Part shown: one piece after another, positions 580-56,785 of the stretch | How the letters are laid out: every line of letters begins with the position of its first letter | How positions within the stretch are numbered: the stretch's first letter is position 1 | Origin: Candidatus Poriferisocius sp. | GTDB taxonomy: Bacteria; Actinomycetota; Acidimicrobiia; Acidimicrobiales; Bin134 | Assembly (NCBI RefSeq): GCF_965202595.1 | Contig: NZ_OZ241836.1 | Span: forward strand, 1,104,357-1,168,356 | Length of the DNA: 64,000 nucleotides | Direction: 5' to 3' | Position numbers and translations under genes: made by a program | The notes under the pieces: model-generated | What the model saw: only the letters and a program-made list of their open reading frames with translations | Told to the model about the DNA's origin: nothing | The model's database searches: none

Positions 580-1389
580 CTACCTTCCGGTGAAGTTGGG
601 GGGTCGGCCCTGGTGGCGGGATGCGGCCCATTCCCGAAAGTCGGCCGAGCGGGATGACAACTCCATGGCGAAGGCCTCGTCGCCCAGATGAGACTCCAGG
701 CTTCTACCGGAACTGCGGCTGATGAGGGTTTTGGTCAGCCCGATGGACACGGTGGCCGAGGCCGCCAACCGGGTGGCCAGCGCCAAAGCCTCGGCATCGA
801 CGTGGTCGGCGGGAACCGCTTGATGGATAAGTCCCCAAGCAGCGGCGTCGGCTCCGGAAATCTCCTCGCCCAGCATCAACATCCGTTTGGTCCGGCTGAT
901 CCCGGCCAAACGGGGCAGGAGCCATGACATCCCACTGTCGGGGGTAATGCCCATGGAGGTGAACGGTGCCCGTAGCCGGGCATCCTCAGCAGCTACCGCG
1001 AAGTCGCAGGCCAGTACCAGGCTGAGGCCCAGACCCACAGCCCATCCCTGTATCGCGCCCACGATGGGTACCTGCACCTCCAGCATCACCGGGATGAGCC
1101 GGTTCACCAGATAGGGCATGCGGCGGGAGATGCTGCCCGGTCGGGGCCGGGGGCCACTTCCGATCCGACCGGCCAGGTCGAAGCCGCTGCAAAAGTTGTC
1201 GCCCTCGGCATTGAGTAGTACTGCCCGAACATCCTCGTCGGAGCCGGCGGCTTCCAGGGTGTCGATAAGTGTGAGAACGATGTCGTCGGTCAGTGCGTTG
1301 CGACGCTGGGGACGGTCCAGGGTGAGGATCAGCAGCGGTGGGGACGAGACCACTCTCAGTCCCTCCGGTGGGTTGGGGTAGGGCTTCAT
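580..1389 (-). CDS. enoyl-CoA hydratase/isomerase (crotonase) family protein
   Basis: The 269-aa C-terminal part of track ORF 580..2025 has crotonase-like segments LTLDRPQRRNAL, NFCSGFDL and GWAVGLGLSL. The ATG at 1387-1389 overlaps the TGA of the upstream mini-ORF (ATGA). Confidence 0.85.
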   Translation of the reverse strand: MKPYPNPPEGLRVVSSPPLLILTLDRPQRRNALTDDIVLTLIDTLEAAGSDEDVRAVLLNAEGDNFCSGFDLAGRIGSGPRPRPGSISRRMPYLVNRLIPVMLEVQVPIVGAIQGWAVGLGLSLVLACDFAVAAEDARLRAPFTSMGITPDSGMSWLLPRLAGISRTKRMLMLGEEISGADAAAWGLIHQAVPADHVDAEALALATRLAASATVSIGLTKTLISRSSGRSLESHLGDEAFAMELSSRSADFREWAASRHQGRPPNFTGR

Positions 1390-1468
1390 GATCGGTGGTG
1401 CTCCGAGCGTAGCAACCCGACCGGTTTCACCGCCGGGGGGTAGGGCTTCATGATCGGTGATGCTCCGG
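1375..1468 (-). repeat. 62-bp junction duplication (about 1.5 copies) creating a 21-aa linker ORF at 1386..1451
   Basis: GGGGTAGGGCTTCATGATCGGTG[G/A]TGCTCCG occurs at 1375-1406 and 1437-1468. Both copies carry the ATCATGA stop/start overlap. The linker ORF reads MKPYPPAVKPVGLLRSEHHRS. Confidence 0.9.
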
Positions 1469-2752
1469 TTCTGCGCCTTCGCCGGTTTCCATGGCCGCGA
1501 ACCGCTCCACCAGAGCTTCCAGCGCTTCCGCCGAAGTCGAGGCTCCGCCCGGGGCGTTGGGAAGCCGGACCGGCCCGTGCTCCCGGCTGGGCAGCAGAAC
1601 GGTGGCATGCCCCGGGGTTGTGGTCTCGCCCCGCTGGTTCTCCCCCCAGATATCCAGATCCACTGCCGGGAGGTCGCCACCGGCCAAGTACTTGCGAGCC
1701 ACCCGACCTCGCATCCAGTGGGTATCGCCCACATAGTTGAATCCTCGGAACTGGCAGTCCAACCGCCACAACCAGGCATCGTCACCCATCCAGTCGGTGC
1801 ACAGGTGAGTAAGCCAGCATTCCCGCATTCGCCCGTAGTCGTACACCGCGGGACTACCCGCTCTCTCGGCCCACTCGGGATCCCAGTGGACCCGCTGCTG
1901 CACATCGGGGACACCGAGGGCATCGGGTCGGAAAAAGCGGGGCACCCGCCGGCGCTGCTGGTACCCCAGGCGCAGGGCTTTGACCCCGTAGAGCCCCATA
2001 CCCATGCCCGCGTGCCAGCAAACAATGTCGGTCACCCGCAGTGGCCCCTTCACCAGAGGAGCAAGCTCGTCCCCCACCTCGGTGTCCTCATACCACCGGG
2101 GTTCCGCGCCCCGGCGGTTGCCGGGTTCGGCGGCGTAGGCCTCGTCAATGCGAGCCAGTTCATCGGTGCCATAGGGTTCGATCAGGCTCTCCCGCTCATG
2201 GCGGGTGGCCTGGGCCTCGGCCCGATCGGTGCGGATCATGAGCCGGTACTGGGCTGACAGCACCGGCCCTCCGCCGGCTGCGAACACCTCGGCGGTCCAT
2301 TCGTGGATCGCTCGATTAGCGAACCGGCTCCGCTTGTCGTGAACTCCGACCAGCGCGTTGCGCCGGGTAACCCGGGTACCGGGTCGCAGGGGTTGCCACC
2401 ACTCCCGGTGGCTGGCCGAGTAGTGGGCCTGCGCTCCCCTGAGTGGATCTCCCCTGAGTAGGGCGGCGGTTTTCGGATCCAGCCGCTCCACCTCGTTCTC
2501 GCCGATCAGCGTATCCCCGCCCACCATCGGCGGCGGGGCGATGGGTCCGCCCCACACGGTCCCCAACCCGTACTCGGGGTCGCACCACAGGGGATTGTCG
2601 TCACCGTAGGCTTCGGCCACCTGCCGGAAAGCATCCTCGTTGGGTACCTGGAAACGGGGTGGTTGGGGATGGGGCGTGGCTGAGCCTATGCGGCTCCGAA
2701 GCGCCGCCACCGCTTCGTCGGTTATGCCACCAGGGTGTCGTCCATCGTTCAC
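1448..2752 (-). CDS. MaoC/FAS1-like (double hotdog) acyl dehydratase family protein
   Basis: From track ORF 1448..2893. The sequence (DDNPLWCDPEYG..., a long two-lobed dehydratase-like protein) matches what I recall for the MaoC N-terminal plus MaoC dehydratase families. Start is uncertain: GTG 2752 or ATG 2836. Confidence 0.6.
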   Translation of the reverse strand: MNDGRHPGGITDEAVAALRSRIGSATPHPQPPRFQVPNEDAFRQVAEAYGDDNPLWCDPEYGLGTVWGGPIAPPPMVGGDTLIGENEVERLDPKTAALLRGDPLRGAQAHYSASHREWWQPLRPGTRVTRRNALVGVHDKRSRFANRAIHEWTAEVFAAGGGPVLSAQYRLMIRTDRAEAQATRHERESLIEPYGTDELARIDEAYAAEPGNRRGAEPRWYEDTEVGDELAPLVKGPLRVTDIVCWHAGMGMGLYGVKALRLGYQQRRRVPRFFRPDALGVPDVQQRVHWDPEWAERAGSPAVYDYGRMRECWLTHLCTDWMGDDAWLWRLDCQFRGFNYVGDTHWMRGRVARKYLAGGDLPAVDLDIWGENQRGETTTPGHATVLLPSREHGPVRLPNAPGGASTSAEALEALVERFAAMETGEGAEPEHHRS

Positions 2753-2891
2753 GAAACGAGAGTAGCCCTGAAGAGTAGCCCGCGAACCGGTTCGCGGGGG
2801 TGAGGGCGGATTCTTCGATGGCAGTGATCTCGCCATCAAGGGGTTGGCTTCGAACCGGTTCGCAGGGGTGGAGCTGAGCCAAACTGATTCC

Positions 2892-3768: not shown

Positions 3769-5580
3769 CTACCTACCGGGTCGGCGTTTCTGGACGCGGG
3801 CCCATTCGTCGCGCAGACCTACGGTGCGGTGGAACCGATCGGGGGCCTCGGGGTCGCGGGCGAAATAGCCGAGGCGCTCGAACTGGACCACCTGGCCGGG
3901 GGCGATGTCGGCCATGGCCGGCTCGAAGCGGGCCGTCTCCACGAGGCGGATGGAGTCGGGGGCCAGCGAGTCCATCGGATCGGTGCCGTCGGCACCGGGG
4001 TAAGGGTGGGTGAACAGGTGCTGGTAGAGCAAGGCCTGGCCGCGGTGGGCGTGGGCCGCGGATACCCAGTGGATGGTGGCCCGCACCCTGCGCCCATCGG
4101 GGGCTTGGCCCGATCCGGTGTCGGGGTCGTAAACACAGCGGACCTCGGTCACCCTGCCGTCTATGTCGGTTTCCACCCCGGTGCAGGTTACGAAGTAGCC
4201 CGATCTCAGGCGGACTTCCCGGCCGGGAGCCAGCCGGTAAAATTTGGGGGGCGGATCGAGCATGAAGTCGTCCCGTTCGATGTAGAGGACTCGTGAGAAC
4301 GGGACCTGCCGGGTACCCGCCGAGGGATCCTCGGGGTTGTTGGCGGCCTCCCGCATCTCCGTTTGGCCCTCGGGATAGTTTTCGATGACCAGCCGTAGCG
4401 GGTCGAGCACCGCCATCCGGCGCAGAGCCACCGCGTTCAGCTCCCGGCGGACGAAGGATTCCAGCAGCTCCACCTCCACGGTGCCGTCCACCCGGGCCAC
4501 CCCGATGTGGCGGCAGAACTGCCGGATTGCGTTTGGCGGGTAGCCCCTCCGGCGCAGACCTTGAAGGGTGGGCATGCGGGGATCGTCCCACCCGGATACA
4601 TGGCCTTTTGACACCAGCTCCGAAAGGCGACGCTTGGACAGCACGGTGTGAGTCAGGTTCAGGCGGGCGAACTCTGTTTGCCGGGGGCGATCCCCGGGCA
4701 GGTCGAGATGTTTTAGGAACCAGTCGTACAGCGGGCGGTGGGCATCGAACTCCAGGGTGCAGATCGAGTGGGTCACACCCTCCAGGGCATCGCTCTGGCC
4801 GTGGGCCCAGTCGTAAGTGGGATAGATGCACCATCGGTCGCCGGTGCGGTGATGGGTCTGGTGGCGAATGCGGTACAACACCGGGTCGCGCATGAGCATG
4901 TTCTCATGGGCCATGTCTATTCGGGCCCGCAACACCCGCTCACCGTCGGCGAACTCGCCGGCCCGCATGCGACGGAACAGGTCCAGGTTCTCATCAACCG
5001 TCCGGTTCCGCCAGGGGCTGTGGGTGCCCGGTTCGGTGAAGCTGCCTCGGGTGGCCGAGATGGTCGCCGCGTCCTGGTCGTCCACATAGGCCAGCCCGGC
5101 CCGGATCAGGTCTTCCGCCCAGTGGTAGAGCGGCTCGAAGTAATCGGAGGCGTAAAGGGTGCCCCGATCGGATTGGTAACCCAGCCAAGCCAGGTCGTTC
5201 TCAATGGCGGCGACGAAATCGGATCTCTCGGTCTCGGGGTTGGTGTCGTCCAGGCGGAGGTTGCAAGTGCCGTTGAACTCGCCGGCCAGGTCGAAGTTCA
5301 AACAGATGGACTTGGCGTGGCCGATGTGGAGATAGCCGTTGGGTTCGGGGGGGAACCGGGTCTGCACCCGACCGGCGAAAGTTCCCTCGGCGATATTCCG
5401 GTTGACCAAGGTGCGAATGAAGTCGCTGCGTTGGCTCGACTTGCCATCAACGAAGTCGCTGCGTTGGTTCGACTTGGTATCAATGAAGTCGCTGCGTTGG
5501 CTCGACTTGGCATCAACGAAGTCGCTGCGCTCGCCCGGTTCGGCATCCCCGGTGCTCCCCGCGCGGCTCATGGGCCCCAT
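3769..5580 (-). CDS. glnS: glutamine--tRNA ligase with repeat-bearing N-terminal extension
   Basis: PEPNGYLHIGHAKS (HIGH) and VLSKRRL (KMSKS-like) class I motifs, with GlnRS-like sequence throughout. ATG at 5580 (MGPMSRAG...). The rest of track ORF 3769..6348 overlaps the divergent amidohydrolase gene. Confidence 0.9.
   Translation of the reverse strand: MGPMSRAGSTGDAEPGERSDFVDAKSSQRSDFIDTKSNQRSDFVDGKSSQRSDFIRTLVNRNIAEGTFAGRVQTRFPPEPNGYLHIGHAKSICLNFDLAGEFNGTCNLRLDDTNPETERSDFVAAIENDLAWLGYQSDRGTLYASDYFEPLYHWAEDLIRAGLAYVDDQDAATISATRGSFTEPGTHSPWRNRTVDENLDLFRRMRAGEFADGERVLRARIDMAHENMLMRDPVLYRIRHQTHHRTGDRWCIYPTYDWAHGQSDALEGVTHSICTLEFDAHRPLYDWFLKHLDLPGDRPRQTEFARLNLTHTVLSKRRLSELVSKGHVSGWDDPRMPTLQGLRRRGYPPNAIRQFCRHIGVARVDGTVEVELLESFVRRELNAVALRRMAVLDPLRLVIENYPEGQTEMREAANNPEDPSAGTRQVPFSRVLYIERDDFMLDPPPKFYRLAPGREVRLRSGYFVTCTGVETDIDGRVTEVRCVYDPDTGSGQAPDGRRVRATIHWVSAAHAHRGQALLYQHLFTHPYPGADGTDPMDSLAPDSIRLVETARFEPAMADIAPGQVVQFERLGYFARDPEAPDRFHRTVGLRDEWARVQKRRPGR
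5416..5540 (-). repeat. 33-bp in-frame tandem repeat (about 3.8 copies) in the glnS 5' coding region
   Basis: AATGAAGTCGCTGCGTTGGCTCGACTTGCCATC-type units encode (K)SSQRSDF(V/I)D four times, immediately upstream of the conserved catalytic core. Confidence 0.9.
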
Positions 5581-6795: not shown

Positions 6796-6985
6796 TAGGT
6801 GTGGCCATGAGCGATCAATGGGACATAATTTCCAGCCACTACAGCAACCAAAAGTTGCTGCCTGATAGGTGATGACCATGAACGATCAATGGGACCGGCA
6901 AGCTGGTGTGGCCATGAGCGATCAATGGGACCGGCAAGCTGGTGTGACCATGAGCGATCAATGGGACCGGCAAGCCGATGTGGTG
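6791..6985 (+). repeat. compound junction repeat: a 70/71-bp duplication plus 36-bp x3 in-frame copies of the downstream start region
   Basis: CCTGATAGGTG..CCATGA.CGATCAATGGGAC occurs at 6791 and 6861. ATGAGCGATCAATGGGACCGGCAAGC units have ATGs at 6878, 6914 and 6950. The ATG at 6807 opens a 21-aa ORF that stops at 6870-6872. Confidence 0.85.
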
Positions 6986-8435: not shown

Positions 8436-8615
8436 TCAGTTCAACACCAGGCCCTCGAGAGCACCCTCATATCAGTTCAACACCAGGCCCTCGAGAGCAC
8501 CCTCATATCAGTTCAACACCAGGCCCTCGAGAGCACCCTCATATCAGTTCAACACCAGGCCCTCGAGAGCACCCTCATATCAGCTCAGCACCAGGCCCTC
8601 GAGAGCACCCTCGTC
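8436..8615 (-). repeat. 36-bp x5 tandem copies of the BVMO 3' terminus, each including the stop codon
   Basis: TCAGTTCAACACCAGGCCCTCGAGAGCACCCTCATA occurs four times (8436, 8472, 8508, 8544), followed by the real end TCAGCTCAGCACC... at 8580. Each copy reads ...GALEGLVL(N/S)-stop on the minus strand. Confidence 0.95.
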
Positions 8616-10865: not shown

Positions 10866-10956
10866 CCGAACTTGTTGGATCGCGGACCTCATCGGATTAC
10901 CGAACTTGTTGGATCGCGGACCTCATCGGATTACCGAACTTGTTGGATCGCGGACC
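10866..10956. repeat. 34-bp tandem repeat (about 2.7 copies) starting 2 nt after the cupin stop codon
   Basis: CCGAACTTGTTGGATCGCGGACCTCATCGGATTA occurs at 10866, 10900 and 10934 (partial). It lies between convergent genes. Confidence 0.9.
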
Positions 10957-11472: not shown

Positions 11473-12349
11473 GGCTGGTCACGGTTCCGGGGGAGGATCC
11501 CGGTGCGGGGGCTTGGAACACCCAACGGTTGCCGGTGCGGGACAGGTGGCCGCAACCGGGGCCGGCGAAGTGGGTGCCGAGGATGAGCACGCCGGAGTCG
11601 GCGTAGCGTTCCCGGAACTCCACCCGGGTGGCGGAGGCTCGTGACGGATCGTCGTCGGCGGTCATGATCCAATCCGGGGCGGCGAACTGCACCGGATGGT
11701 GGACCAGGTCACCGGTGATTACCGCCTCCTGGCCCCGGGATGAGATTTGGACGCTGACATGGCCAGGGGTATGGCCCGGCGTGGGCATGAGGCGGATCTC
11801 GCCGGTGACCTGGTGGTGACTGTCCACGAGGTCGGCCAAGCCGGCCTCCATTACCGGCTGCACAGCGTCGCCAAAGGTTACCGCTGCCCCCTCCGCCCCG
11901 GAGTCCCAGTAGTCGTACTCGGTGCGGTTGAACAGGTAGCGGGCGTTGGGGAAGGCCGGCACCCACTTGGCATCCACGAGGATGGTATTCCAGCCCACAT
12001 GATCAAAGTGCAGGTGGGTGCAGAGCACCACATCGATATCGGGGGGTTCATACCCGGCGGCGGCCAACTCGTCGAGGAATCCGGTGCCGAGGTGGCTCAT
12101 CTGGGGAACCATCTCGATGGGCCGGTTGCCGATGCAGGTGTCCACCATCACGGTTTGGCCCTCGGACTCCAGTACCAGGGCGTGAATGGACAGCGGCAGG
12201 TTGCCGGACTCCTCCATGAAGTGGGGTTTCAACCAGTCGGCGTTGGCCTCGAACACTGCCATGTCGGGGTTCGTGTACATGCCGGTGGCGGGGACGCTTT
12301 GCAGGGTCTCCCGTATCAGGGTGACCTTCACGTCACCGATTGGCATCAT
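11465..12349 (-). CDS. MBL-fold metallo-hydrolase (lactonase-like)
   Basis: Contains the HLHFDHVGWN zinc-binding motif and a downstream TPGHTPGH. Confidence 0.8.
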   Translation of the reverse strand: MMPIGDVKVTLIRETLQSVPATGMYTNPDMAVFEANADWLKPHFMEESGNLPLSIHALVLESEGQTVMVDTCIGNRPIEMVPQMSHLGTGFLDELAAAGYEPPDIDVVLCTHLHFDHVGWNTILVDAKWVPAFPNARYLFNRTEYDYWDSGAEGAAVTFGDAVQPVMEAGLADLVDSHHQVTGEIRLMPTPGHTPGHVSVQISSRGQEAVITGDLVHHPVQFAAPDWIMTADDDPSRASATRVEFRERYADSGVLILGTHFAGPGCGHLSRTGNRWVFQAPAPGSSPGTVTSHG

Positions 12350-12422
12350 GTCCGGGTGACCTTCACATCACCGATTGGCATCATGTCCGGGTGACCTTCA
12401 CATCATCAATTGGCATCATGTC
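12321..12422 (-). repeat. 35-bp x3 duplication of the MBL start codon region, creating two 12-aa ATGA-coupled uORFs
   Basis: ATGATGCCAAT(C/T)G(G/A)TGA(T/C)GTGAAGGTCACCC units have ATGs at 12419, 12384 and 12349. The upstream copies read MMPI(D/G)DVKVTRT-TGA, with the TGA overlapping the next ATG. Confidence 0.9.
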
Positions 12423-14258: not shown

Positions 14259-14277
14259 CCGGATTGCCCGGCGGTGC

Positions 14278-14357
14278 TGCTGTCTGGTGGTTTCGCTGTC
14301 CGGCGGTTTCGCTGTCCGGCGGTTTTGCTGTCCGGCGGTTTTGCTGTCCGGCTGGTT
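14278..14357. repeat. 16-bp x5 tandem repeat filling the convergent intergenic gap
   Basis: GCTGTC(C/T)GG(C/T)GGTTT(C/T) units lie between the UGSC stop (14258) and the dioxygenase stop (14364). Confidence 0.9.
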
Positions 14358-17853: not shown

Positions 17854-17981
17854 GCACCTGGCTATCCGGTAGTGCGTATATGGCAATGAGCACCTGGGTA
17901 TCCGGTAGTGCGTATATGGCAGTAAGCACCTGGGTATCCGGTAGTGCGTATATGGCAGTAAGCACCTGGCTATCGGGTAGT
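17838..17981 (+). repeat. 36-bp x4 tandem copies of the lipoprotein 3' terminus, filling the whole intergenic gap to the ATPase
   Basis: GCGTATATGGCA(A/G)T(G/A)AGCACCTGG(C/G)TATC(C/G)GGTAGT occurs at 17838, 17874, 17910 and 17946. Each copy keeps RIWQ-stop, as CAA TGA or CAG TAA. Confidence 0.95.
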
Positions 17982-20401: not shown

Positions 20402-20471
20402 AATTGTGGCTGCGGACGAAAAGGGGCGGGTGGTTTACCGGAAGAAGTAGTCGGGGTTACCAGGGGCGTTA
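20367..20471 (+). repeat. 71-bp duplication (about 1.5 copies) of the ATPase 3' terminus
   Basis: CCGGAAGAAGTAGTCGGGGTTACCAGGGGCGTTA occurs at 20367-20400 and 20438-20471. The real stop is TAA; the copy has TAG at the same position. Confidence 0.9.
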
Positions 20472-20481
20472 GGGTCGGATC

Positions 20482-41343: not shown

Positions 41344-41415
41344 GACGGCCAACCCCATCTGTCGCCAGCGGGTTGCTGCTCAGCTTCGTGAGACCGGGGC
41401 TTCATTTCGCTCATG
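41313..41415 (-). repeat. 71-bp duplication of the ilvD start region, creating a 24-aa ATGA-coupled uORF (41340..41414)
   Basis: CTTCGTGAGACCGGGGCTTCATTTCGCTCATG occurs at 41313 and 41384. The u[27 protein letters not shown] ends in a TGA that overlaps the ilvD ATG. Confidence 0.9.
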
Positions 41416-44785: not shown

Positions 44786-44866
44786 CGGGGAGGGGGAAGC
44801 CGTGATGGGAAGGGGAAACCGGGAGGGGAAGGGGAAGCGGGGAGGGGAAGGGGAAACCGGGAGGGG
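44786..44866 (+). repeat. G-rich purine repeat (about 19-20 bp x3-4; many GGGG/GGGAGG runs)
   Basis: GGGAAGGGGAAACCGGGAGG / GGAAGGGGAAGCGGGGAGG / GGAAGGGGAAACCGGGAGG lie directly upstream of the SCP2-like gene. Confidence 0.85.
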
Positions 44867-44878: not shown

Positions 44879-45304
44879 GTGGGGGTGTACCGGTTCCTCG
44901 GTCCGGAGTGGATCCAGGCTGCTCTGGTGTTGCGCGAGGAGCTGGCCCCGGCCGCTCCGGCCTCCGAGCGCAGGGCCAGGGTAAATCTGGTGGTTACCGG
45001 TACCCCTTTCGGCGGCGAGGTTCGGGCCTACATCGACACCGAGGCCGGCGGGCCACTGCCCCTGCCCGGCGAGCTGGAGAATCCCGATGCCACCGTTACC
45101 CTCGACTACCGGTCGGCTCTGGCCGCGTTCGTCACCGATGATCCCGAAGGGGTTGCCCGCGGCTTTCTCACCGGCACCCTCCGGGTGGATGGCGACCTGA
45201 CTCTCGTGCTCACCCTGTTCGGTGAGGGGATGAACGACGAGCAGGCCGCCTTCGCCCGCCGGGCCCAGGCGCGGTTGCGAGCGATCACGATCCTTACTGG
45301 ATGA
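44879..45304 (+). CDS. SCP2 sterol-carrier-like domain protein
   Basis: YRFLGPEWIQAAL...VNLVVTG...ATVTLDYRSALAAF...GTLRVDGDLTL is typical of SCP2 folds. GTG start is uncertain. Confidence 0.55.
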   Translation: MGVYRFLGPEWIQAALVLREELAPAAPASERRARVNLVVTGTPFGGEVRAYIDTEAGGPLPLPGELENPDATVTLDYRSALAAFVTDDPEGVARGFLTGTLRVDGDLTLVLTLFGEGMNDEQAAFARRAQARLRAITILTG

Positions 45305-45450
45305 GTGTGATGCAGGTTCCGAAGTGCATGTTTTACTGGATGAGTGTGATGCAGGTTCCGAAGTGCATGTTTTACTGGATGAGTGTGATGCAGGTTCCGA
45401 AGTGCATGTTTTACTCGGGTCGGGTGATGAGCTTGATGCAGGTTCCGAAG
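45294..45450. repeat. 39-bp x3 copies plus the diverged original, spanning the convergent SCP2 and kinase stop codons
   Basis: TTACTGGATGAGTGTGATGCAGGTTCCGAAGTGCATGTT occurs at 45294, 45333 and 45372. The real kinase end TTACTCGGGTCGGGTGATGAGCTTGATGCAGGTTCCGAAGTCC is at 45411. Confidence 0.95.
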
Positions 45451-47378
45451 TCCACGACCGCGGCTGCGGGTGGGTTGCTGGCCAGTATCTCGGTGTCGTT
45501 CGGCCCCTCGATCTCCCCCGGACACAGCCCCAGGCCCTCCAGGATCTCCGTGGCCTCCTCCACGTTCAGGGTGGCCAGGGGGGGCACCGTAACCTGCTGG
45601 GGGCCATCCGAAACCACCACCGTCACCACCGAGTCAGCGGCCACCTCCGTTCCCGGAGGAGGTTCCACCCTCACCACGAGGCCGGAAGCCACCTGGTTGT
45701 CCTCCACCCGCCACTCCTCCACCCGCAGCCGGAGATCCTCCAGCTTCTCGACGGCCACGGCCCGCGGCGTACCGGTGTCTATTGCCGGCACCACCCGGGG
45801 CACCGGTCCGAGGGATACCACCAGGTCCACCTGGCCTCCCGGCTCGACCTCGGGGAACAGCTCGTCCACTTGGATGATGACCCCCTCGAGCACGATCTCG
45901 TCGTGGCGCTCGACCACCCCTCCCAGCGACAGACCCACCCCGGCCAGAACAGTCTCGGCATCCTGAACCGCTATTCCCACGAGACCGGCGGGGATGGCCA
46001 CCAGCTCGGGACCCAACGACACCCATACCGTTACCGTCTCGCCCCGTTTCAATCCGGTGCCCGGTTGGGGGTTCTGGCTCAGTACTTGGCCGGCCTCCGT
46101 ACCGTCCCGGCGCTGCTCACGGCGGTCGAGCACCCAGCCGAACTCGTTCTCGATACGCAGCAGCCCGGCCTCACCGGTACCAGCCAGATCGGGTACCGGC
46201 CGGGTCTCGGTACTGAACCAGTTGTCCCACGTCATGTAACCCCCGAACCCCACCGCCCCCACGAGCAGCACCATGAGCAGCAGCAGCCTCCGAAACCCCG
46301 CGGGTTCGATCCGGTGGGGGCTGCCGTCCTGCGGTCTCGTTGCCGAAACCGGATCATCAGGGGTGGCAGGCGCGGGTTCGATCCGGTGGGGGCTGCCGTC
46401 CTGCGGGAGCATCACCGCGGTCGGGGTGCCGGTCGTATCCTGGACGATGCTGGAGGCGGTGAAGGCTTCGGCATCAGATCCGGGCAACCCCGGTTCGGGC
46501 ATGTCCGGCAGGGCCCTGGACAGCGGAAGCGGTTCGGGGCGGTGCAGCGATTCCGCCGCTTCCAGAAGTCCGGTGGCCAGCTCGCCGGCGCTGGGACGTT
46601 CGTTGCGGTCCGGCTGCCCGGCCTCCTCCAGGACTCGACCCAGACGGCCGAACTGGCCGCCAAGATCGAGCTGTCGCCCCATCTTGGCCATCTGGGTGTA
46701 TTCGGGATCGTCGGAGTCGAACGGAACCTGCCCCGACAGGACCTCGGTGAGCACCAGCACCAGGGAGTACACGTCGCTCTTGTGGTCCGGGGTCAGGCCT
46801 TGAGTCTGCTCGGGCGGGGCGTAGCGAACCGCGTCCACCCTGGTGAAAACCGATCTCTCCGCCAACATCCCTGCCGTCTCCAGCATCACCCGGGACAGGC
46901 CCAGATCCGCCAGATGAGCCTGGCCTTGGTTGTCGAACAGGATATTGGAGGGTCGGATGTTTTGATGGATGAGCCCTAGCCGGTGTATGTGCTCCAGCCC
47001 GCGGGCAACCTCCAAGCCGACCATCAGGGTTTGGGAGGGCGACAGCAGGTGCCCGGATTCCAGTATTCCCAGCAGGCTTCCACCCTCCAGGTAGTCGGTC
47101 ACCACGTGGAAGCCATAATCGGATTTCCCCCAATCCCGGGTGGCCACGATGTTGGGGTGGGCCACCGAGGCGGTCTCCCGGGCTGCCTCGACAAAGCGGT
47201 CGGCAAGGTTCGGGTCGGTGGCCCATCCTGCGGGCAGAACCTCCGCCGGCAGCAGCTTGACGGCTACCCAGCAGGATTGCGACAGGTCGTGGGCCAGGAA
47301 CACATTGGTGAACCGGCCCGAGCCGATGAACGACACGAGCCGGTAGCGCTTGCCCAGAACTCGACCGATCTCCTTCAT
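45411..47378 (-). CDS. PASTA-domain Ser/Thr kinase homolog (PknB-like) with a degenerate catalytic loop
   Basis: Contains the GSGRFTNV G-loop, VAVK, DLG and APPE, a TM segment, and four PASTA-like units each ending ...SLGP/SDGP. The catalytic loop reads IHQNIRPSN instead of HRDxKxxN. Confidence 0.85.
   Translation of the reverse strand: MKEIGRVLGKRYRLVSFIGSGRFTNVFLAHDLSQSCWVAVKLLPAEVLPAGWATDPNLADRFVEAARETASVAHPNIVATRDWGKSDYGFHVVTDYLEGGSLLGILESGHLLSPSQTLMVGLEVARGLEHIHRLGLIHQNIRPSNILFDNQGQAHLADLGLSRVMLETAGMLAERSVFTRVDAVRYAPPEQTQGLTPDHKSDVYSLVLVLTEVLSGQVPFDSDDPEYTQMAKMGRQLDLGGQFGRLGRVLEEAGQPDRNERPSAGELATGLLEAAESLHRPEPLPLSRALPDMPEPGLPGSDAEAFTASSIVQDTTGTPTAVMLPQDGSPHRIEPAPATPDDPVSATRPQDGSPHRIEPAGFRRLLLLMVLLVGAVGFGGYMTWDNWFSTETRPVPDLAGTGEAGLLRIENEFGWVLDRREQRRDGTEAGQVLSQNPQPGTGLKRGETVTVWVSLGPELVAIPAGLVGIAVQDAETVLAGVGLSLGGVVERHDEIVLEGVIIQVDELFPEVEPGGQVDLVVSLGPVPRVVPAIDTGTPRAVAVEKLEDLRLRVEEWRVEDNQVASGLVVRVEPPPGTEVAADSVVTVVVSDGPQQVTVPPLATLNVEEATEILEGLGLCPGEIEGPNDTEILASNPPAAAVVDFGTCIKLITRPE
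46300..46405 (-). repeat. 72-bp in-frame duplication in the kinase juxtamembrane linker
   Basis: CGGGTTCGATCCGGTGGGGGCTGCCGTCCTGCGG occurs at 46301 and 46373. It encodes PQDGSPHRIEPA twice. Confidence 0.9.
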
Positions 47379-47434
47379 TTCGGGCACGCTTTGAGGGTAC
47401 CGATCTCCTTCATTTCGGGCACGCTTTGAGGGTA
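47365..47434 (-). repeat. perfect 35-bp x2 duplication of the kinase start, creating a 12-aa ATGA-coupled uORF (47375..47413)
   Basis: CCGATCTCCTTCATTTCGGGCACGCTTTGAGGGTA occurs twice. The uORF MKEIGTLKACPK ends in a TGA that overlaps the ATG at 47378. Confidence 0.95.
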
Positions 47435-47521
47435 CTGCCTGCTCGGAGTGGTTCCTGTGACTCGCCCAATCCAAAGTCATCCGGGGTGTATCTCGCCATC
47501 GGTAGCGGGCACACTGAGAAA

Positions 47522-47941
47522 GTGCGGAACTTCAACTTGTTGCGACGGCTACTTCTGGGAGCCGCAGCCCTGGTGGGCATAGCCGCCATCCTGCTGGCGC
47601 TGTTCCTGGCCGACACCGACGACATTGACGTGACCATCTCCGGCAACGCTGCGGTGGACGCGCTCATTCCCCCTCGCAACGCCGAGGTCCTCTCGCAAGA
47701 GACAGTGGGGGTGGATCTCGCCACCGGCTACGATGCCCGCCTGGCGCTCAACGGTGTGAACATTCCCCCGGAGCAGGTACGCCACATGCCCAATATCAAC
47801 CGGTTCACCTTCCGCCCCGATGAGGGGAAGGTGATCGAGAGGCTTCAGGCCGAGCGGAACTGTGTTGAGGTCACCTACTGGCCCCTCGCCGCCGGTCCCG
47901 AGCAGGCCGACACCATCAGTTGGTGCTTCAACGCTTCCTAG
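47522..47941 (+). CDS. hypothetical membrane-anchored protein
   Basis: N-terminal TM segment LLLGAAALVGIAAILLALFLA followed by a soluble domain of about 110 aa. The start is uncertain; the track ORF begins at TTG 47426. Confidence 0.4.
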   Translation: MRNFNLLRRLLLGAAALVGIAAILLALFLADTDDIDVTISGNAAVDALIPPRNAEVLSQETVGVDLATGYDARLALNGVNIPPEQVRHMPNINRFTFRPDEGKVIERLQAERNCVEVTYWPLAAGPEQADTISWCFNAS

Positions 47942-48050
47942 CCGGTTAGGTGTTTGTTTGTCCTCGGGGCTGGTGCTTCAACGCTTCCTAGCCGGTTAGG
48001 TGTTTGTTTGTCCTCGGGGCTGGTGCTTCAACGCTTCCTAGCCGGTTAGG
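47921..48050. repeat. perfect 50-bp repeat (2.6 copies) spanning a convergent stop/stop CTAG junction
   Basis: TGGTGCTTCAACGCTTCCTAGCCGGTTAGGTGTTTGTTTGTCCTCGGGGC occurs at 47921, 47971 and 48021. The plus-strand gene stops in copy 1 (TAG 47939-47941) and the minus-strand gene stops in copy 3 (CTA 48038-48040). Confidence 0.95.
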
Positions 48051-49168
48051 CGCTGGCGGGCAAGGGTGGTGGCCAGGCCGGGGCGGGAGGGGGCGATCAG
48101 AACCGCGGTTGTCTTGATGTCACCGGTACTCGTGTCGCCGGTGGCGCGATTCGCCCGACGGGTGGGTGGGGTCAGGGTGATCGGCTGGGTCATGGCCAGC
48201 TCCAGGATCAAGCCGGCCGCCCCCATGCTCAGGTCCACCGTGTCTGATTCTTGTGGGGCCGCCCCCGTGCTCAGGTCAACTGTGTCTGATCCTTGATCTG
48301 ATCCTTGCGGGGCAGGGCCGAGGACGGCCACCACCCGGCGGCGCAAGAGCAGTGGATCCTGCACCGCGAGATGATCGTGGATCACCACCCCGGCGGGAAC
48401 GAAAACCAGCCATCGCCGGGTTAGTGAGTAGAGGGAACGGGCCCCTACTACTGCCAAAAGCCCGCCCACCACCGTGATTACCACCCCTGCCACCCAGTGC
48501 TCGGCGGCCAGAAGCAGGGGTCCGCTGAGCAAGCCGCCCACGGTGATGGCCGCCGCGGCCGGCACGGGTCCGGCCACCAGCATCGCCGGGGGTCGCAGCA
48601 GCAGCCTGATCTCATCGCCGTAGGAGATCCCGTTCACGAGCACCTGGCCCACCGGAGCGCTGAGCGAGGCTGCGGCCACCGCGGCGGTGATCGCTGCCAC
48701 CAGGGCAACCTCATCCCAGCCGGCCCCGCCCAGTCCGGCCCACACCAGCGCGGCCACCGCCGAGGGCAGCGCCAACCGAACCAGGACCAGCGTCACCGGA
48801 TGAGCCAGCAGGATGCCCACCAGTACCAGTGCCCACAGTACCCATAATCCCAGCGACGAGGTCGATCTCCACGACGGCGATGTTTCGTGCAGGGCATCGG
48901 CCAGAACCGGCCCGGCAGTGAACGGCAACGCCGCCCACCACCCCCGCACCCCCCACACCCACAATCGATCTCCCCGAAGACCCCTCACGGCCCCCACTAC
49001 AGCACCTCCCCCACCCCAGCCCAAACCATCCACACTGCACTCCGTATCAGTAGAGCTCGCCGTTTTGCCGCCGAAGTTGGTAGGTCGGCAGGTGTCGCCG
49101 GTGGTTGCGAGTTGTACTTGAACTGCGATTCGCAGTGCGCTATGTTTGACCCATGAGATTGAAAGCAA
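48038..49168 (-). CDS. hypothetical polytopic membrane protein
   Basis: Track ORF with several hydrophobic helices (LWVLWALVLVGILLA, VALVAAITAAVAAA, VVITVVGGLLAVVGA). The true start is probably downstream of 49168. Confidence 0.4.
   Translation of the reverse strand: MLSISWVKHSALRIAVQVQLATTGDTCRPTNFGGKTASSTDTECSVDGLGWGGGGAVVGAVRGLRGDRLWVWGVRGWWAALPFTAGPVLADALHETSPSWRSTSSLGLWVLWALVLVGILLAHPVTLVLVRLALPSAVAALVWAGLGGAGWDEVALVAAITAAVAAASLSAPVGQVLVNGISYGDEIRLLLRPPAMLVAGPVPAAAAITVGGLLSGPLLLAAEHWVAGVVITVVGGLLAVVGARSLYSLTRRWLVFVPAGVVIHDHLAVQDPLLLRRRVVAVLGPAPQGSDQGSDTVDLSTGAAPQESDTVDLSMGAAGLILELAMTQPITLTPPTRRANRATGDTSTGDIKTTAVLIAPSRPGLATTLARQRLTG
48215..48310 (-). repeat. 42-bp x2 plus 12-bp x2 in-frame duplications near the 3' end of the membrane protein gene
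   Basis: GGCCGCCCCC(A/G)TGCTCAGGTC(C/A)AC(C/T)GTGTCTGAT occurs twice and CTGATCCTTG occurs twice. Together they encode ...SDTVDLS(T/M)GAA... twice and QGSD twice. Confidence 0.85.
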
Positions 49169-49658: not shown

Positions 49659-49674
49659 ATCAAGGAGAAAGCAC

Positions 49675-49933: not shown

Positions 49934-52813
<2,880 letters not shown>

Positions 52814-53550: not shown

Positions 53551-54660
53551 TCACGCTGCCACCCCGCCGCCTATAACCAGATCACCCTGGTAGAACACCA
53601 GGGCTTGGCCGGGGGCTACTCGCCGCTGCGGCTCAACCCAACGGATCTCGCAACTGCCCCCTCCTCTGCTGGCGGTAACGGTGCCGACCATGGGGGCGGG
53701 GTGCGGGCCGCCTGGTTCGCCCTCCCTTGCTCTGCTTTCCGTAACCGTGCCGACCATGGGGGTACCGTGGGCGCTGGCCTGGATGTCCACCGGGCCGTTT
53801 ACCGCCTCGCCGGTCCACTGGATGCCAATCACGTCCTGGGTGTCGGTGTAGAGATCCTCCCGCCGGCCCAGGGTGATCCGGGCCGAGGCGATGTCCACGC
53901 CGGTCACGTACCGGGGTTCATCGTTTCCGCCCAGGTTCAGCCCCCGGCGCTGTCCGATGGTCACCGCCGGCACCGACTCCACCGAGCCCAGCACCGTTCC
54001 GTCGGCATCGACCACGGTTCCCGGCATCTCGCCCAACCGCCGGGCCAGAAAGCCGCGCCTGCCCCCCGACCGGTTGGCAATGAAACACACATCCTGACTG
54101 TCGGGCTTGGCCGAGTTGCGCAGGCCCAGATCGGCAGCCCGCTCGCGGACCTCGGCCTTGGTCAGGTGACCGATCGGCAGCATCAGCCGGGCCATCTGCT
54201 GCTGGCTCAACATGTATAGCACGTAGGACTGATCCTTGGCCGTGTCCACCCCCCGCTGCACACGGGGCCCGCCGCCGGTGTCCAGCAGGCGAGCATGATG
54301 GCCGGTGGCCACCGCGTCAAAGCCCAGGGCCTCGGCCCGCACCATCAGCTTGTCGAACTTGATGTGCCGGTTGCACTCGATGCAGGGGTTGGGGGTAAGC
54401 CCGCCGGCGTGGCCATCCACATAGGGGGTTACCACCCGCTGCTCGAAGGCATCGCCGAAGTTGAACACGTGATGCTCCAGACCCAGCCGGTCGGCCACCC
54501 GGCGGGCATCCTGCACATCTGACACCGAGCAGCAGCCGGTGTCCGACTCCCCTCCCCACAGCTTGAGGGTGACCCCCACCACATCGTGACCCTGCTCGGC
54601 CAGCAGCCCCGCAGCCACCGACGAGTCCACTCCTCCCGACATGGCGGCCAGAACCCTCAT
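53551..54660 (-). CDS. mnmA: tRNA 2-thiouridine(34) synthase
   Basis: MRVLAAMSGGVDSSVAA PP-loop, and CIECNRHIKF. Confidence 0.9.
   Translation of the reverse strand: MRVLAAMSGGVDSSVAAGLLAEQGHDVVGVTLKLWGGESDTGCCSVSDVQDARRVADRLGLEHHVFNFGDAFEQRVVTPYVDGHAGGLTPNPCIECNRHIKFDKLMVRAEALGFDAVATGHHARLLDTGGGPRVQRGVDTAKDQSYVLYMLSQQQMARLMLPIGHLTKAEVRERAADLGLRNSAKPDSQDVCFIANRSGGRRGFLARRLGEMPGTVVDADGTVLGSVESVPAVTIGQRRGLNLGGNDEPRYVTGVDIASARITLGRREDLYTDTQDVIGIQWTGEAVNGPVDIQASAHGTPMVGTVTESRAREGEPGGPHPAPMVGTVTASRGGGSCEIRWVEPQRRVAPGQALVFYQGDLVIGGGVAA
53675..53762 (-). repeat. 66-bp in-frame duplication inside the mnmA C-terminal domain
   Basis: GTAAC(G/C)GTGCCGACCATGGGGG occurs at 53675 and 53741. It encodes PMVGTVT(E/A)SR... 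twice. Confidence 0.8.
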
Positions 54661-54728
54661 TTCGTCACCTCCGGTACTGGGTGGTGGCTGGGGGTTGCTC
54701 CCTTCGACATGGCAGCCAGAACTCTCAT
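54635..54728 (-). repeat. 68-bp duplication of the mnmA start, creating a 23-aa ATGA-coupled uORF (54657..54728)
   Basis: CGACATGGC(G/A)GCCAGAAC(C/T)CTCAT occurs at 54637 and 54705. The uORF MRVLAAMSKGATPSHHPVPEVTK ends in a TGA that overlaps the mnmA ATG at 54660. Confidence 0.9.
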
Positions 54729-54732
54729 GGCT

Positions 54733-55887
54733 TCAGCCCGGGCCGTGGGCGCGGAGGCGGGCGACCGCGGTGGGGATGGCGGCCAGCGCCCGGTCGATGT
54801 CGCTCTCGGTGGTCTCGTAGCCCAGCGACAGGCGCAGCGATCCCCCGGCCAGCCCCCGGTCGTAGCCCATGGCCGCCAGGACATGCGACGGATCCTGAGC
54901 GCCGCTGGAGCACGACGAGGCGGCCGACGCGTACACCCCGGCATCCTCCAGCAAGAACAGCAGGGCCTCCGACTCAATGCCCTCGAAACACAAATGGACC
55001 GACCCGGCCACCTTGGCCGACCGGTCTCCGGTTTCCACCACCCCTTCCACCGTACCCAGCACCCCGCCGGCCAGCCGATCCCGCAGCCGGGCCAGTCGGA
55101 CCACCTGGTCGTCCCGGTTCTTCACCACGACCTCGGCGGCGGCGGCCATGCCCACGATGCCGGCCGCGTTGTGGGTGCCCGAGCGCAGCCCCCACTCCTG
55201 GCCGCCCCCCAGCAGCAGCGGGGACAGTTCCACCCCGGCGCGCACCACCAACGCCCCTACCCCCTTGGGCCCCCCGAACTTGTGAGCACTCACCGAGATC
55301 ATGCCGGCTCCGGCGGCGGCGGTGGCCACGTCCAGCCAGGGAAAGGCCTGCACCGCGTCGGTGTGCAGCACGGCCCGGGGAGCAGCCGAGCGCACCACCT
55401 CGGCCACCCGGCTCAGAGGCTGCACCATGCCGGTCTCGTTGTTGGCCAGCATCACCGATACCACGGTCACGTCCTCGTCCAGGGCCGCGGCCAGGGCCTC
55501 GCAATCAATGACCCCGGTGCTGTCCACCGCCACCACCCGGCCCCCCAGGTGCTCCACCGGCTCCAGCACCGCGTGATGCTCGATGGCCGAGCACACCGGC
55601 ACCCCGCCCGCTCGCCGGTAACGGCCGACCACGGCCAGGTTGTCGCTCTCGGTGCCCCCGCCGGTGAACACGATCTCACCGGGTTCGGCCCCGAGGGCCT
55701 CGGCCATCAGGTCACGGGCATCGTCAATCCGCCGCCGGGTGGCCCGGGCCAAGCAGTGCGCTCCGGTCGGGTTGGCGTAAAGCTCCCGGTGCAGCGGAGC
55801 CATCGCCTCAGCCGCCTCCCGGCACAGCGGGGTGGAGGCGGCATTATCCAGGTAGGCAACCTCGTCAGGCCCTGCGGATGCATTCAT
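54733..55887 (-). CDS. cysteine desulfurase (IscS/NifS-type, PLP-dependent)
   Basis: SAHKFGGPKGVG PLP-lysine motif and SSCSSG active-site Cys loop. It lies upstream of mnmA. Confidence 0.9.
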   Translation of the reverse strand: MNASAGPDEVAYLDNAASTPLCREAAEAMAPLHRELYANPTGAHCLARATRRRIDDARDLMAEALGAEPGEIVFTGGGTESDNLAVVGRYRRAGGVPVCSAIEHHAVLEPVEHLGGRVVAVDSTGVIDCEALAAALDEDVTVVSVMLANNETGMVQPLSRVAEVVRSAAPRAVLHTDAVQAFPWLDVATAAAGAGMISVSAHKFGGPKGVGALVVRAGVELSPLLLGGGQEWGLRSGTHNAAGIVGMAAAAEVVVKNRDDQVVRLARLRDRLAGGVLGTVEGVVETGDRSAKVAGSVHLCFEGIESEALLFLLEDAGVYASAASSCSSGAQDPSHVLAAMGYDRGLAGGSLRLSLGYETTESDIDRALAAIPTAVARLRAHGPG

Positions 55888-55902
55888 TGGGGGTTCGCTT
55901 TC

Positions 55903-56010
55903 ATACCGGCACCTGCTGAGGTCGCGTAGAAGAGCAGTTCATGTCGGCACTCGTCTAGGTCGAGGAGAAGAGCAGTGTTCGTACCGGCACCCGCTTAGAT
56001 CGCGGGGAAG
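55903..56010 (-). repeat. about 39-bp x3 (two degenerate copies) of the DsbA-like gene 3' terminus
   Basis: ATACCGGCACCTGCTGAGGTCGCG..AGAAGAGCAGT / ATGTCGGCACTCGTCTAGGTCGAGGAGAAGAGCAGT / GTACCGGCACCCGCTTAGATCGCGGGGAAGACCAG (the real end). Confidence 0.65.
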
Positions 56011-56657
56011 ACCAGATCGTCGCGCTGGGAGCGTTTCAGCTCGGCGAATGACGGCCATGAGGCCAGGGTCACCACCGCGTCCCACAGGCGCACCGAATCC
56101 TCCGGCGGCGGGAGTTGACTCACCACCGGTCCGAAGAACGAGGTGGTCCCCCGATCATGGTGAAACGTGATGATCGGGGTGCCCACATCCGGCCCCGTGC
56201 GCCTCAGCGCCTCCTGGGTGGAGTCCCGCAGGGCATCGTCCAACGACTCGTCCCCGGCCCGGCCGGCCAGCTCCCGGGCCACGCCGATTCGCTCCAGCGC
56301 GGCGGCCAGGTGCTCTTCGGAGGCCACCTTGTCCATTGATGAGCGGATGTTGGGGTCGGGGTTCCAGATGGTGTGCCCGTAGGCGGTGTACAGCGGGCCG
56401 ACCGCCGCTGGTCCGTGCTCCTGGCGCACCGCTTGAGCCACCCGCAGCATCCGCCGACCCTTGTGGTGCAGCTCCCGGTAGCCGTCGGGAAAGCCGTCGT
56501 AGTCGCTGTTCTCGTTCAGGATCGACAAGCAGATAAACCGCCAGTCCACCGAATAGTCCCGCTGGCGAACCACCTCGGTCACCCATCGAGAGGTGATCCA
56601 GGCAAACGGGCAGATGGGATCCCAGAAGAACTCGATGTCGGTATCGGCCATGCCCAT
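55995..56657 (-). CDS. DsbA-family thioredoxin-fold protein
   Basis: IEFFWDPICPFAW, with the CPFA motif at the usual CxxC position. A 220-aa protein. Confidence 0.65.
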   Translation of the reverse strand: MGMADTDIEFFWDPICPFAWITSRWVTEVVRQRDYSVDWRFICLSILNENSDYDGFPDGYRELHHKGRRMLRVAQAVRQEHGPAAVGPLYTAYGHTIWNPDPNIRSSMDKVASEEHLAAALERIGVARELAGRAGDESLDDALRDSTQEALRRTGPDVGTPIITFHHDRGTTSFFGPVVSQLPPPEDSVRLWDAVVTLASWPSFAELKRSQRDDLVFPAI

Positions 56658-56680
56658 GATCCTACGGCTCGTGCCGCCAC

Positions 56681-56785
56681 AAACCGGCCATCAAAACCGA
56701 TCCGGCGATCCAGCTAAACCGGCCATCCAGCTAAACCGGCCATCAAAACCGATCCGGTGATCCAGCTAAACCGGCCATAAACTTG
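56681..56785. repeat. 35-bp/17-bp tandem repeats in the divergent intergenic region
   Basis: AAACCGGCCATCAAAACCGATCCGG(C/T)GATCCAGCT occurs twice, interleaved with AAACCGGCCATCCAGCT and AAACCGGCCATAAAC. Confidence 0.85.

Follow-up and report, generated by a model that had tools for sequence, protein, structure and literature searches.

Short tandem duplications crowd the gene ends of the 64-kb window analysed here, the whole 64,000-nt stretch of Candidatus Poriferisocius sp. contig NZ_OZ241836.1 (positions 1,104,357 to 1,168,356). The arrays are real, lineage-specific, derived and filtered by reading frame, and they are best filed as genuine locus-specific minisatellites ('close direct repeats') of unusual density, lineage specificity and gapped class. 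Their boundary specificity is best explained as survivorship, not targeting. We put a probability of about 65% on duplication that is blind to gene position followed by purifying selection, rather than on targeting or on boundary variants being favoured; that duplications arise regardless of position, and by which molecular route, is what we infer from the patterns described below.

Tandem arrays in the window

The window is bacterial chromosomal DNA of 65% GC with housekeeping and catabolic genes (gatCAB, ilvDBNC, ligA, a PASTA kinase, GlnRS, mnmA and numerous oxidoreductases), and tRNA and Rfam searches of it gave no match. Its proteins lie on a 3.04-Mb contig, and close protein relatives come from marine-sponge Acidimicrobiia, several of which are called 'Candidatus Poriferisocius sp.'. 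A second assembly of the same organism, a 99.8-kb European Nucleotide Archive (ENA) contig labelled 3x, differs from the window at two sites, a G-homopolymer indel at 4688 and a single-nucleotide polymorphism (SNP) at 23906, and carries all arrays in identical form. Gene ends were taken from ENA gene calls mapped onto the window, with a frameshift-split GlnRS call swapped for the intact open reading frame (ORF) at 3769-5580. The indel falls in a G5/G6 homopolymer within this GlnRS-like gene; the additional G frameshifts the ENA contig copy, which accounts for the odd calls there (a 268-aa C-terminal fragment and a spurious opposite-strand ORF). The closest other genome, hereafter the sister (a 3.37-Mb contig; 80-92% identical in nucleotides, with GatA at 90% and thiolase at 93%), is represented by three loci totalling 64.4 kb.

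Three concordant detectors, Tandem Repeats Finder (TRF), a repeat finder and our own offset scan, were used. Our threshold retains 25 arrays with periods of 15-72 bp, and two degenerate arrays (54630 and 55900) bring the total to 27, all between 1375 and 56778; five codon-shuffled controls contained none. Including short TRF rows (period 14-24), the count is about 32. This is close to the roughly 34 arrays counted in a first-pass annotation of the window, whose observation is confirmed; the span given there, 1375-56785, is matched (first array at 1375, last at 56681-56778), and the examples cited there are exact and 100% identical (48 bp x2.0 at 21976, 35 bp x2.1 at 47364, 50 bp x2.6 at 47921). 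Arrays hold 1.5-5.6 copies that are 73-100% identical. In the list below no strand is assigned to the arrays themselves; percentages are identities among copies, A and B are the repeated and intervening segments of gapped arrays with lengths in nucleotides, and gene strands stand in brackets.

1375..1467, A(31)-B(31)-A(31), period 62, 97%; hyp434 stop and enoyl-CoA hydratase start, ATGA overlap
5419..5529, 33 bp x3.4, 91%; in-frame 11-aa repeat (xxKSSQRSDF) at the N-terminus of the GlnRS-like gene (3769-5580, minus)
6876..6982, 36 bp x3.0, 94%; triplication of the start codon plus the first 12 codons of an FAD oxidoreductase, a further 27-nt copy lying apart at 6798-6824
8436..8612, 36 bp x4.9, 99%; stop and last 11 codons of a flavin monooxygenase (8580-10385, minus), filling a convergent spacer
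10866..10956, 34 bp x2.7, 100%, (A23-B11)x2-A23; convergent spacer, beginning 2 nt past the Cupin_7 stop
12319..12422, 35 bp x3.0, 96%; start of a metallo-beta-lactamase-fold gene (minus)
14268..14357, 16 bp x4.6-5.6; convergent spacer between UGSC and PhyH genes
16410..16516, A(35)-B(37)-A(35), period 72; in-frame within hyp489 (its first ~40 codons), 5 nt past the NUDIX stop (ATGA junction)
17837..17981, 36 bp x4.0, 95%; includes the hyp489 stop (ATGA)
20367..20471, A(34)-B(37)-A(34), period 71, 100%; P-type ATPase/luciferase-like junction, copy 1 closing the ATPase ORF and copy 2 being the conserved region upstream of the luciferase-like gene
21976..22072, 48 bp x2.0, 100%; includes the aldehyde dehydrogenase stop, 9 nt upstream of the PrxQ start
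24848..24912, 33 bp x2.0, 97%; in-frame 11-aa duplication directly past an amidohydrolase start (minus)
29195..29302, A(36)-B(36)-A(36), period 72, 100%; GTG start and N-terminus of an amidohydrolase (minus)
30317..30391, 15 bp x5, 80%; divergent spacer, start of the CoA-transferase ORF
31687..31800, A(45)-B(24)-A(45), period 69, 100%; in-frame linker between the two CoA-transferase III domains of a fused ORF
41313..41415, A(32)-B(39)-A(32), period 71, 100%; ilvD start codon and first 10 codons
42856..42929, 33 bp x2.2, 98%; duplicated gatA stop/gatB start ATGA junction, giving an in-frame 11-aa N-terminal duplication
44788..44866, 19 bp x4.2, 87%, purine-rich; divergent spacer between gatC and hyp141
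45294..45415, 39 bp x3.1, 100%; copies of the PASTA-kinase C-terminus and stop, between two convergent stops
46299..46406, A(36)-B(36)-A(36), period 72, 100%; in-frame in the kinase juxtamembrane linker (PQDGSPHRIEPA-PATPDDPVSATR-PQDGSPHRIEPA)
47364..47435, 35 bp x2.1, 100%; includes the true kinase start (assigned by homology)
47921..48050, 50 bp x2.6, 100%, (A30-B20)x2-A30; A carries the CTAG of the overlapping stops of two convergent genes
48215..48295, 42 bp x1.9, 90%; in-frame within hyp319
53664..53762, period 66, 1.5 copies, 88%; in-frame in the C-terminal part of mnmA
54630..54749, period 68, ~1.8 copies, 73%, an old array; cysteine desulfurase-like stop (ATGA)/mnmA start
55900..56015, 38-40 bp x3, 73%, an old array; spacer between the Rv2466c-like stop and an aminotransferase start
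56681..56778, 52 bp x1.9, 98%, with a 17-bp sub-period; divergent spacer

The arrays fall into a head-to-tail class with periods of 33-50 bp and 2-5 copies (for example 8436, 17837 and 45294) and a gapped A-B-A class with periods of 62-72 bp and about 1.5 copies (1375, 16410, 20367, 29195, 31687, 41313, 46299 and 53664), with intermediate (A-B)n-A forms at 47921, 10866 and 8436. Within the gapped class of the window, A measures 31-45 nt and is 97-100% identical between copies, and the unrelated B measures 24-39 nt. Periods pooled with those of the sister (among them ten of 38-66 at locus L092) peak at 30-41, 48-53 and 60-72 bp, with none at 20-29 bp although these are within detectable range; A-B-A periods concentrate at 69-72 (window) and 60-66 (sister). 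Microhomology is visible at some array ends (CCGGnGA at 42856, TTACT at 45294). The GC content of the arrays, 0.59, equals that of other non-coding DNA. Slippage driven by hairpins was considered and rejected: array units are no more structured than control boundaries (z -0.41 versus -0.20, p=0.36), and B spacers are just mildly hairpin-prone (mean z -0.85).

Association with gene ends

A start or stop codon is called within 15 of the 27 window arrays (permutation mean 4.1, s.d. 1.8, maximum 12 in 5000), and 21 of the 27 lie within 40 nt of one (permutation mean 6.4, maximum 15 in 5000); the enrichment of arrays at gene termini proposed in the first-pass annotation thus holds for this 64-kb window. 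With the kinase start at 47364 corrected by homology, 22 of 27 are boundary or intergenic. The same test in the sister finds a boundary inside 14 of 29 arrays (4.2 expected) and 21 within 40 nt (6.7 expected). As also proposed, the units derive from local gene termini and often are the terminus itself: the ilvD start, the gatA/gatB ATGA junction, the kinase C-terminus with its stop, the convergent CTAG. Offsets of start and stop codons inside the units are variable, and starts, stops and convergent, divergent and co-directional junctions are all affected.

The longest non-coding stretch of the window, about 1 kb at 48997-50018, has no convincing gene and a single 44-aa call, and holds an (AC)11.5 microsatellite at 49202-49224.

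Lineage specificity and ancestral state

Array density is 3.9 per 10 kb in the window and 4.5 in the sister (12 + 7 + 10 = 29 arrays in 64.4 kb), so that both genomes carry about 27-29 duplications of 15-93 bp per 64 kb; sister arrays too are at boundaries, mostly at junctions other than those of the window. Five 'Poriferisocius' genomes slightly farther away than the sister have 1.4 (L087), 0.9 (L091), 0.5 (L088) and 0 (L083 and L089) per 10 kb, from loci of 14-21 kb (0, 0 and 1 array per 21 kb, and two each in the two others), and 80 other Acidimicrobiia loci around gatB (1.3 Mb) have about 0.2. As the five assemblies follow the same contig naming scheme (at 61-170x), the rarity or absence of arrays in them marks the trait as lineage-specific and not a pipeline artefact.

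Where a junction can be compared, with L001 or with whichever member of the sister pair lacks the array, the relative mostly has the single-copy version that an ancestral state would predict. This applies to gatA/gatB (42856; single-copy in L001 and in the sister locus L082), the kinase start, the ilvD start and stop, the ilvC stop, 24848, 29195 (A once and no B in the sister) and, in the sister, 12319 and 5419; the 21976 junction is also single-copy there. Protein lengths agree. The FAD oxidoreductase at 6876 has 502 aa in the window versus 477-478 aa (481 in one) among the members listed from its 90% cluster of 108, and the amidohydrolase at 24848 has 417 aa versus 406 aa in the full-length listed members (two fragments aside) of its 145-member 90% cluster, 40 members of each cluster having been read and 15 listed; the excesses of 24 and 11 aa are exactly the extra repeat copies.

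Other junctions differ between the sisters in kind. The sister carries a plain 53x2 duplication at 1375, its left edge unchanged, a degenerate A-B-A at 31687, a separate 34 bp x3 array at 45294 and an additional hydratase gene at 20367. Two junctions are arrayed in both lineages with copies that share lineage-specific substitutions, and the presence of arrays in both (1375, 31687) implies that some are recurrent, or old and homogenised. For this reason the suggestion that the process is ongoing stands only in part: it is plausible, but identical copies can equally stem from concerted evolution, so that 'identical' cannot securely be read as 'recent'. Copy numbers are the same in the two assemblies of the organism. 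Strain polymorphism of the arrays found no support in JGI metagenomes, GTDB representative genomes or the 90% clusters: the 8436 unit was absent from the metagenomes and representative genomes, and cluster members yielded just alternative gene calls of the same genome.

Gene content also differs from that of the sister, relative to which the window has lost genes (39468-39632, 41359-41440 and 20402-20481). The window lacks a MatE transporter that the sister has between gatB and ilvD and an enoyl-CoA hydratase between the P-type ATPase and luciferase-like genes. Of a CTP_transf_like gene between ilvD and ilvB it keeps only a remnant of about 150 bp. A DUF222-HNH gene and a type I restriction-modification system of the sister are absent from the window.

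A reading-frame filter

The arrays bear a clear imprint of selection on reading frames. Gene-interior arrays have a period divisible by 3 in 7 of 7 window cases and 5 of 5 sister cases (chance (1/3)^12) and sit in linkers or termini, such as the juxtamembrane linker of the kinase; all other periods are confined to boundaries and spacers. Duplications of a start codon with a period of 2 mod 3 (62, 35, 71, 35 and 68) fall on ATGA starts in all five window cases (p ~0.007, given that 21 of 57 starts are ATGA), and the sister adds a sixth ATGA case of period 59, read by eye (L082, 14477). At ATGA starts the ORF of the upstream copy terminates in a TGA that overlaps the functional ATG. Accordingly, the distal ATG at 1375 opens a 21-codon ORF whose TGA overlaps the proximal ATG, distal ORFs of 24 codons at 41313 and 12 codons at 47364 terminate on the proximal ATGA, and at 12319 a chain of mini-ORFs forms in which every one terminates on the next ATGA. 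At 17837 a 47-codon ORF bridges the ATGA stop to a TGATG on the P-type ATPase start. Small ORFs that overlap flanking stops and starts, likened in the first-pass annotation to those of mycobacterial interspersed repetitive units (MIRUs), are in this way recreated at several loci.

Location can be accounted for in similarly simple terms. Relatives free of tandem repeats are 94-98% coding, and most of their adjacent genes share a 4-nt overlap. If the observed unit sizes are placed uniformly on these genomes, 7.9% of positions are non-interior, versus 23 of 27 observed; among non-interior sites, the expected boundary share is 72% and the observed one 19 of 23 (83%, p=0.35). Nothing further than 'not inside a gene' is required for array location. 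Of the two causes put forward earlier, a mechanism targeted to gene boundaries loses ground, because the frame statistics, the uniform-placement model and the variable offsets fit a position-blind process plus filter, and selection for boundary variants loses ground because the same frame patterns fit purifying selection.

In the process that we propose, short local duplications would arise at an unusually high rate in this lineage (window genome and sister), in units mostly of 30-41, 48-53 or 60-72 bp and irrespective of gene position, perhaps by replication slippage or template switching, or by fill-in and rejoining of staggered breaks; existing arrays would thereafter expand and contract. 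Purifying selection, as the data show, purges nearly all within-gene duplications. Units containing a stop are tolerated, the protein being unaltered and the copy turning into spacer, as are units containing a start, which yield either an in-frame N-terminal repeat or a mini-ORF ending on the real ATG (ATGA) with translational coupling kept; purely intergenic units and in-frame units in disordered linkers also survive. Because the ancestral genome was very compact, with 4-nt overlaps between most neighbours, a tolerated duplication of 35-70 bp is nearly forced to include a gene terminus, whence the MIRU-like look.

Several observations weigh against this account. The filter model leaves the elevated duplication rate of the lineage unexplained. 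Neither the size peaks nor the A-B-A class, with A and B both of about 31-37 nt, is predicted by simple slippage, and plain tandem duplication has no way of making a B spacer unrelated to both flanks. No 30-70 bp array is present in the 1-kb non-coding stretch at 48997-50018, where rough arithmetic expects about 2-3. The several junctions arrayed in both sisters, finally, call for hotspots or for old arrays under concerted evolution.

Gapped arrays and their spacers

In about one-third of the loci, which are A-B-A, B bears no relation to either flank; these loci depart from the contiguous duplication of a slippage-type variable number tandem repeat (VNTR). A local origin of B by copying was pursued and rejected. 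Searches of the window with blastn-short returned chance matches of at most 13 nt; alignments to the flanks, to A and to reverse complements were not significant; comparing B with the flanks in register yielded p=0.08 and p=0.74; with the self-copy at 47921 set aside there was no excess of local k-mer patchwork; and an exact-match search of 1.5 Mb of related loci found no source. Three B sequences had no match in IMG/VR, likewise by exact-match search. At two loci, 29195 and L082 16259, the other genome of the pair has one A and no B.

We also considered A-B-A arrays as scars of whole-gene deletions, an idea prompted by 20367, where the hydratase is missing relative to the sister, and 41313, where MatE is missing and the flank homology is ambiguous. 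It was rejected, as gene order is intact at 29195, 31687, 46299 and L082 16259.

There is a small chance that this lineage acquired an activity that makes duplications with a built-in ruler of about 35 nt, or else shed a protection against such an activity, for example nicking at staggered positions with fill-in, an off-target integrase-like enzyme (Cas1-Cas2), or slippage quantised by a unit the size of single-stranded DNA-binding protein (SSB) or HU. Such an activity would duplicate targets of about 35 nt, often inserting about 35 nt of untemplated or foreign filler; the boundary minisatellites would in that case be scars, sifted by selection, of a mutational process not described before in bacteria. 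An unusually long LigA (931 aa) was examined as a cause and set aside, because its insert is at least partly shared with Acidimicrobiia free of tandem repeats (aligning to ~620) and hence not lineage-specific.

The ligA gene itself lies at 50018-52813 (+). Relative to the LigA of M. tuberculosis and E. coli, its product has an insert of about 268 aa (residues ~479-746) in the helix-hairpin-helix (HhH) region that holds additional HhH motifs; the sister LigA has 970 aa.

Alternative explanations

That breakage or mutation is physically targeted to boundaries, through transcription- or translation-associated breaks at starts and stops, R-loops or collisions of replisome and RNA polymerase, would account for the strong boundary enrichment in two genomes, for several junctions struck in both lineages, for the absence of arrays from the 1-kb non-coding stretch and for the boundary share of 83% versus 72% among non-interior sites. 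That excess over the neutral model is not significant, however; offsets within units vary, starts as well as stops are hit, at junctions of every orientation, linkers hold in-frame interior arrays, units show no more structure than control boundaries do, and junction sharing with the sister is close to independence (an estimated ~8 expected, 8-9 seen). We regard targeting as unlikely. Positive selection for regulatory devices, be they upstream ORFs and coupling, the uncoupling of overlaps, spacers and terminators, or phase-variable N- and C-termini, is a less probable explanation again. Mini-ORFs do join an upstream stop to a downstream start at 1375, 12319, 17837, 41313, 47364 and 54630, overlapping stops and starts (ATGA, CTAG) do become separated, and the slight hairpin tendency of B would suit it, but purifying selection alone would leave identical frame patterns. 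The genes hit are unrelated housekeeping genes without a functional theme, the arrays are private to one lineage with more than 100 close orthologues lacking them (listed members of the 90% clusters), copy number is the same in both assemblies, and array GC matches that of neutral non-coding DNA.

For the A-B-A subset, integrase-like events such as off-target Cas1-Cas2 integration ('neo-CRISPR'; CRISPR, clustered and regularly interspaced short palindromic repeats) would insert a foreign or self oligonucleotide of about 35 nt (B) at cuts staggered by about 35 nt, with fill-in duplicating the target A. At most A-B-A loci the lengths are about 31-36 nt for A and 31-39 nt for B; six window loci have an A+B sum of 69-72, which matches the repeat-plus-spacer sizes typical of CRISPR; B resembles neither A nor the flanks and lacks a local template; and for 29195 and L082 16259 the other genome has one A and no B. 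Yet A ranges over 21-47 and B over 3-60 across window and sister, A sequences have no common motif, B copies are identical within (A-B)n-A arrays, the Pfam annotations of the genes of the window and its flanks include no cas gene and no CRISPR array was found among them, the three B sequences searched lack an IMG/VR match, and pure head-to-tail arrays of equal unit size would need a second mechanism. We give integration a slim chance. An artefact of long-read metagenome assembly or polishing is hardly credible: one contig with the region is labelled 3x coverage, but the arrays respect reading frames and gene ends, are identical between two assemblies that a homopolymer indel and a SNP set apart elsewhere, are few or missing in relatives of the same naming scheme at 61-170x, and include old diverged members (73-90% identity). 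Membership in a dispersed repeat family, whether MIRU, repetitive extragenic palindromic (REP) element, MITE (miniature inverted-repeat transposable element) or CRISPR, is next to impossible. The arrangement resembles that of MIRUs, and units of 33-72 bp fall partly within the size range of such families, but all-versus-all local alignment of the units on both strands reached a maximum score of 15 against shuffle maxima of 13-18, leaving inter-locus similarity at chance level; every unit copies the terminus of its adjacent gene, and there are no Rfam or tRNA features. The first-pass annotation was right that no two loci share sequence.

Comparison with known systems

The MIRU-VNTRs of M. tuberculosis, as PMC3184786 summarises them (Supply et al. 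1997), are tandem units of 40-100 bp, intergenic within operons, whose small ORFs overlap the flanking stop and start codons and whose sites are empty in related species; they form a single dispersed family whose 40-50 or so related copies, which may have been transposed, carry tetranucleotide direct repeats. The window arrays resemble them in being tandem units of similar size, in lying between genes of operons with overlapping small ORFs at the six mini-ORF loci named above, and in that counterpart sites of relatives lack the array. They differ in that each locus is built from its own gene terminus without common sequence, and so no single family exists; they also often include coding N- or C-termini, and the host is an acidimicrobial sponge symbiont. 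Nor do the units show the shared consensus with inverted repeats of REP elements or MITEs. CRISPR arrays use one repeat for all units with unique spacers, whereas here A differs per locus, and B matches neither the window, nor 1.5 Mb of related loci, nor, for three B sequences by exact match, IMG/VR.

Ordinary bacterial minisatellites and VNTRs are also close, as are the close direct repeats that slipped-strand mispairing reportedly makes (Achaz et al. 2002; Treangen et al. 2009). Head-to-tail local copies and single-copy ancestral junctions are found in the window as in slippage-type VNTRs; the locus-specific units, end microhomology at some loci, in-frame bias within genes and turnover by expansion and contraction are further likenesses. 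The window differs in its density, about 20x that of the 80 related loci, in lineage specificity, in sharp size classes and in its large gapped class, whose spacer has no detectable template.

Three mechanistic analogues serve as leads only. Mutants of yeast rad27/FEN1 and of the E. coli polA 5'-nuclease accumulate tandem duplications of about 5-100 bp genome-wide, flanked by short direct repeats; the likeness lies in the duplication spectrum, and such flap-processing mutators do not explain unrelated B spacers. Off-target integration of CRISPR spacers is said to create 'neo-CRISPR' loci (Nivala et al. 2018), which would share the order of target duplication, unrelated spacer and target duplication and sizes near repeat plus spacer; the window arrays differ in having no common target motif, no visible cas context, variable sizes and two A copies per event. 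Bacteria are not known to have polymerase theta. Eukaryotic microhomology-mediated or polymerase-theta-type end joining, the subject of PMC5728401 and PMC8654963, reportedly yields templated insertions and small tandem duplications, with copies of local flanks inserted near the break and sometimes with filler. Filler in those systems is reportedly templated nearby, whereas B in the window is neither a local copy nor a local k-mer patchwork. The published literature, as searched, contains no description of boundary arrays of this kind.

Gene calling and other features of the window

The arrays mislead gene callers: the kinase is called with 689 or 655 aa and the fused CoA-transferase with 890 or 853 aa, and the gatB call begins in the upstream copy. 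The fused ORF has two CoA-transferase family III domains (30325-32997, +; 890 aa, 853 aa in the NCBI call and 804 aa in the sister).

A PrxQ/BCP-type peroxiredoxin gene (21515-21967, -) has an in-frame TGA at the position of the peroxidatic cysteine (WYPKASTPG*TIQG) and is split by callers into ORFs of 93 and 37 aa. The same split recurs in the sister and in another relative, which makes a selenocysteine protein the probable product; not far away, at 28092-28301, is an Rdx-family (SelW-like) gene.

Two RCC1_2 repeat proteins with 111-bp (37-aa) repeats are encoded at 58001-60082 (-) and 62447-63706 (-), with 14 and 6 Pfam hits; a duplicated N-terminal segment of 174 bp is common to both (59609-59934 and 63224-63550). 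Eukaryote-like repeat proteins of this kind are typical of sponge symbionts, and they form a class distinct from the boundary arrays. Between them lies an AbiEi/AbiEii toxin-antitoxin (abortive infection) pair (60670-62366, +), and a PhdYeFM/PIN (VapBC-like) pair is found at 52814-53466 (-).

Implications

A short-duplication process and its selective filter are exposed here unusually clearly, as a natural mutational spectrum. Under the neutral model about 90% of events must have been purged, and the survivors show which changes at gene ends are tolerated: copies containing a stop, in-frame N-terminal repeats and mini-ORFs ending on ATGA. Array spans make up 24% of the non-coding DNA of the window, which is 91% coding compared with 94-98% in the relatives free of tandem repeats, and the process may therefore show a very compact genome gaining intergenic DNA, upstream ORFs and terminal extensions. 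Its lineage specificity points to looking for the responsible change in a replication or repair gene, and the arrays are candidate VNTR markers for uncultured sponge symbionts.

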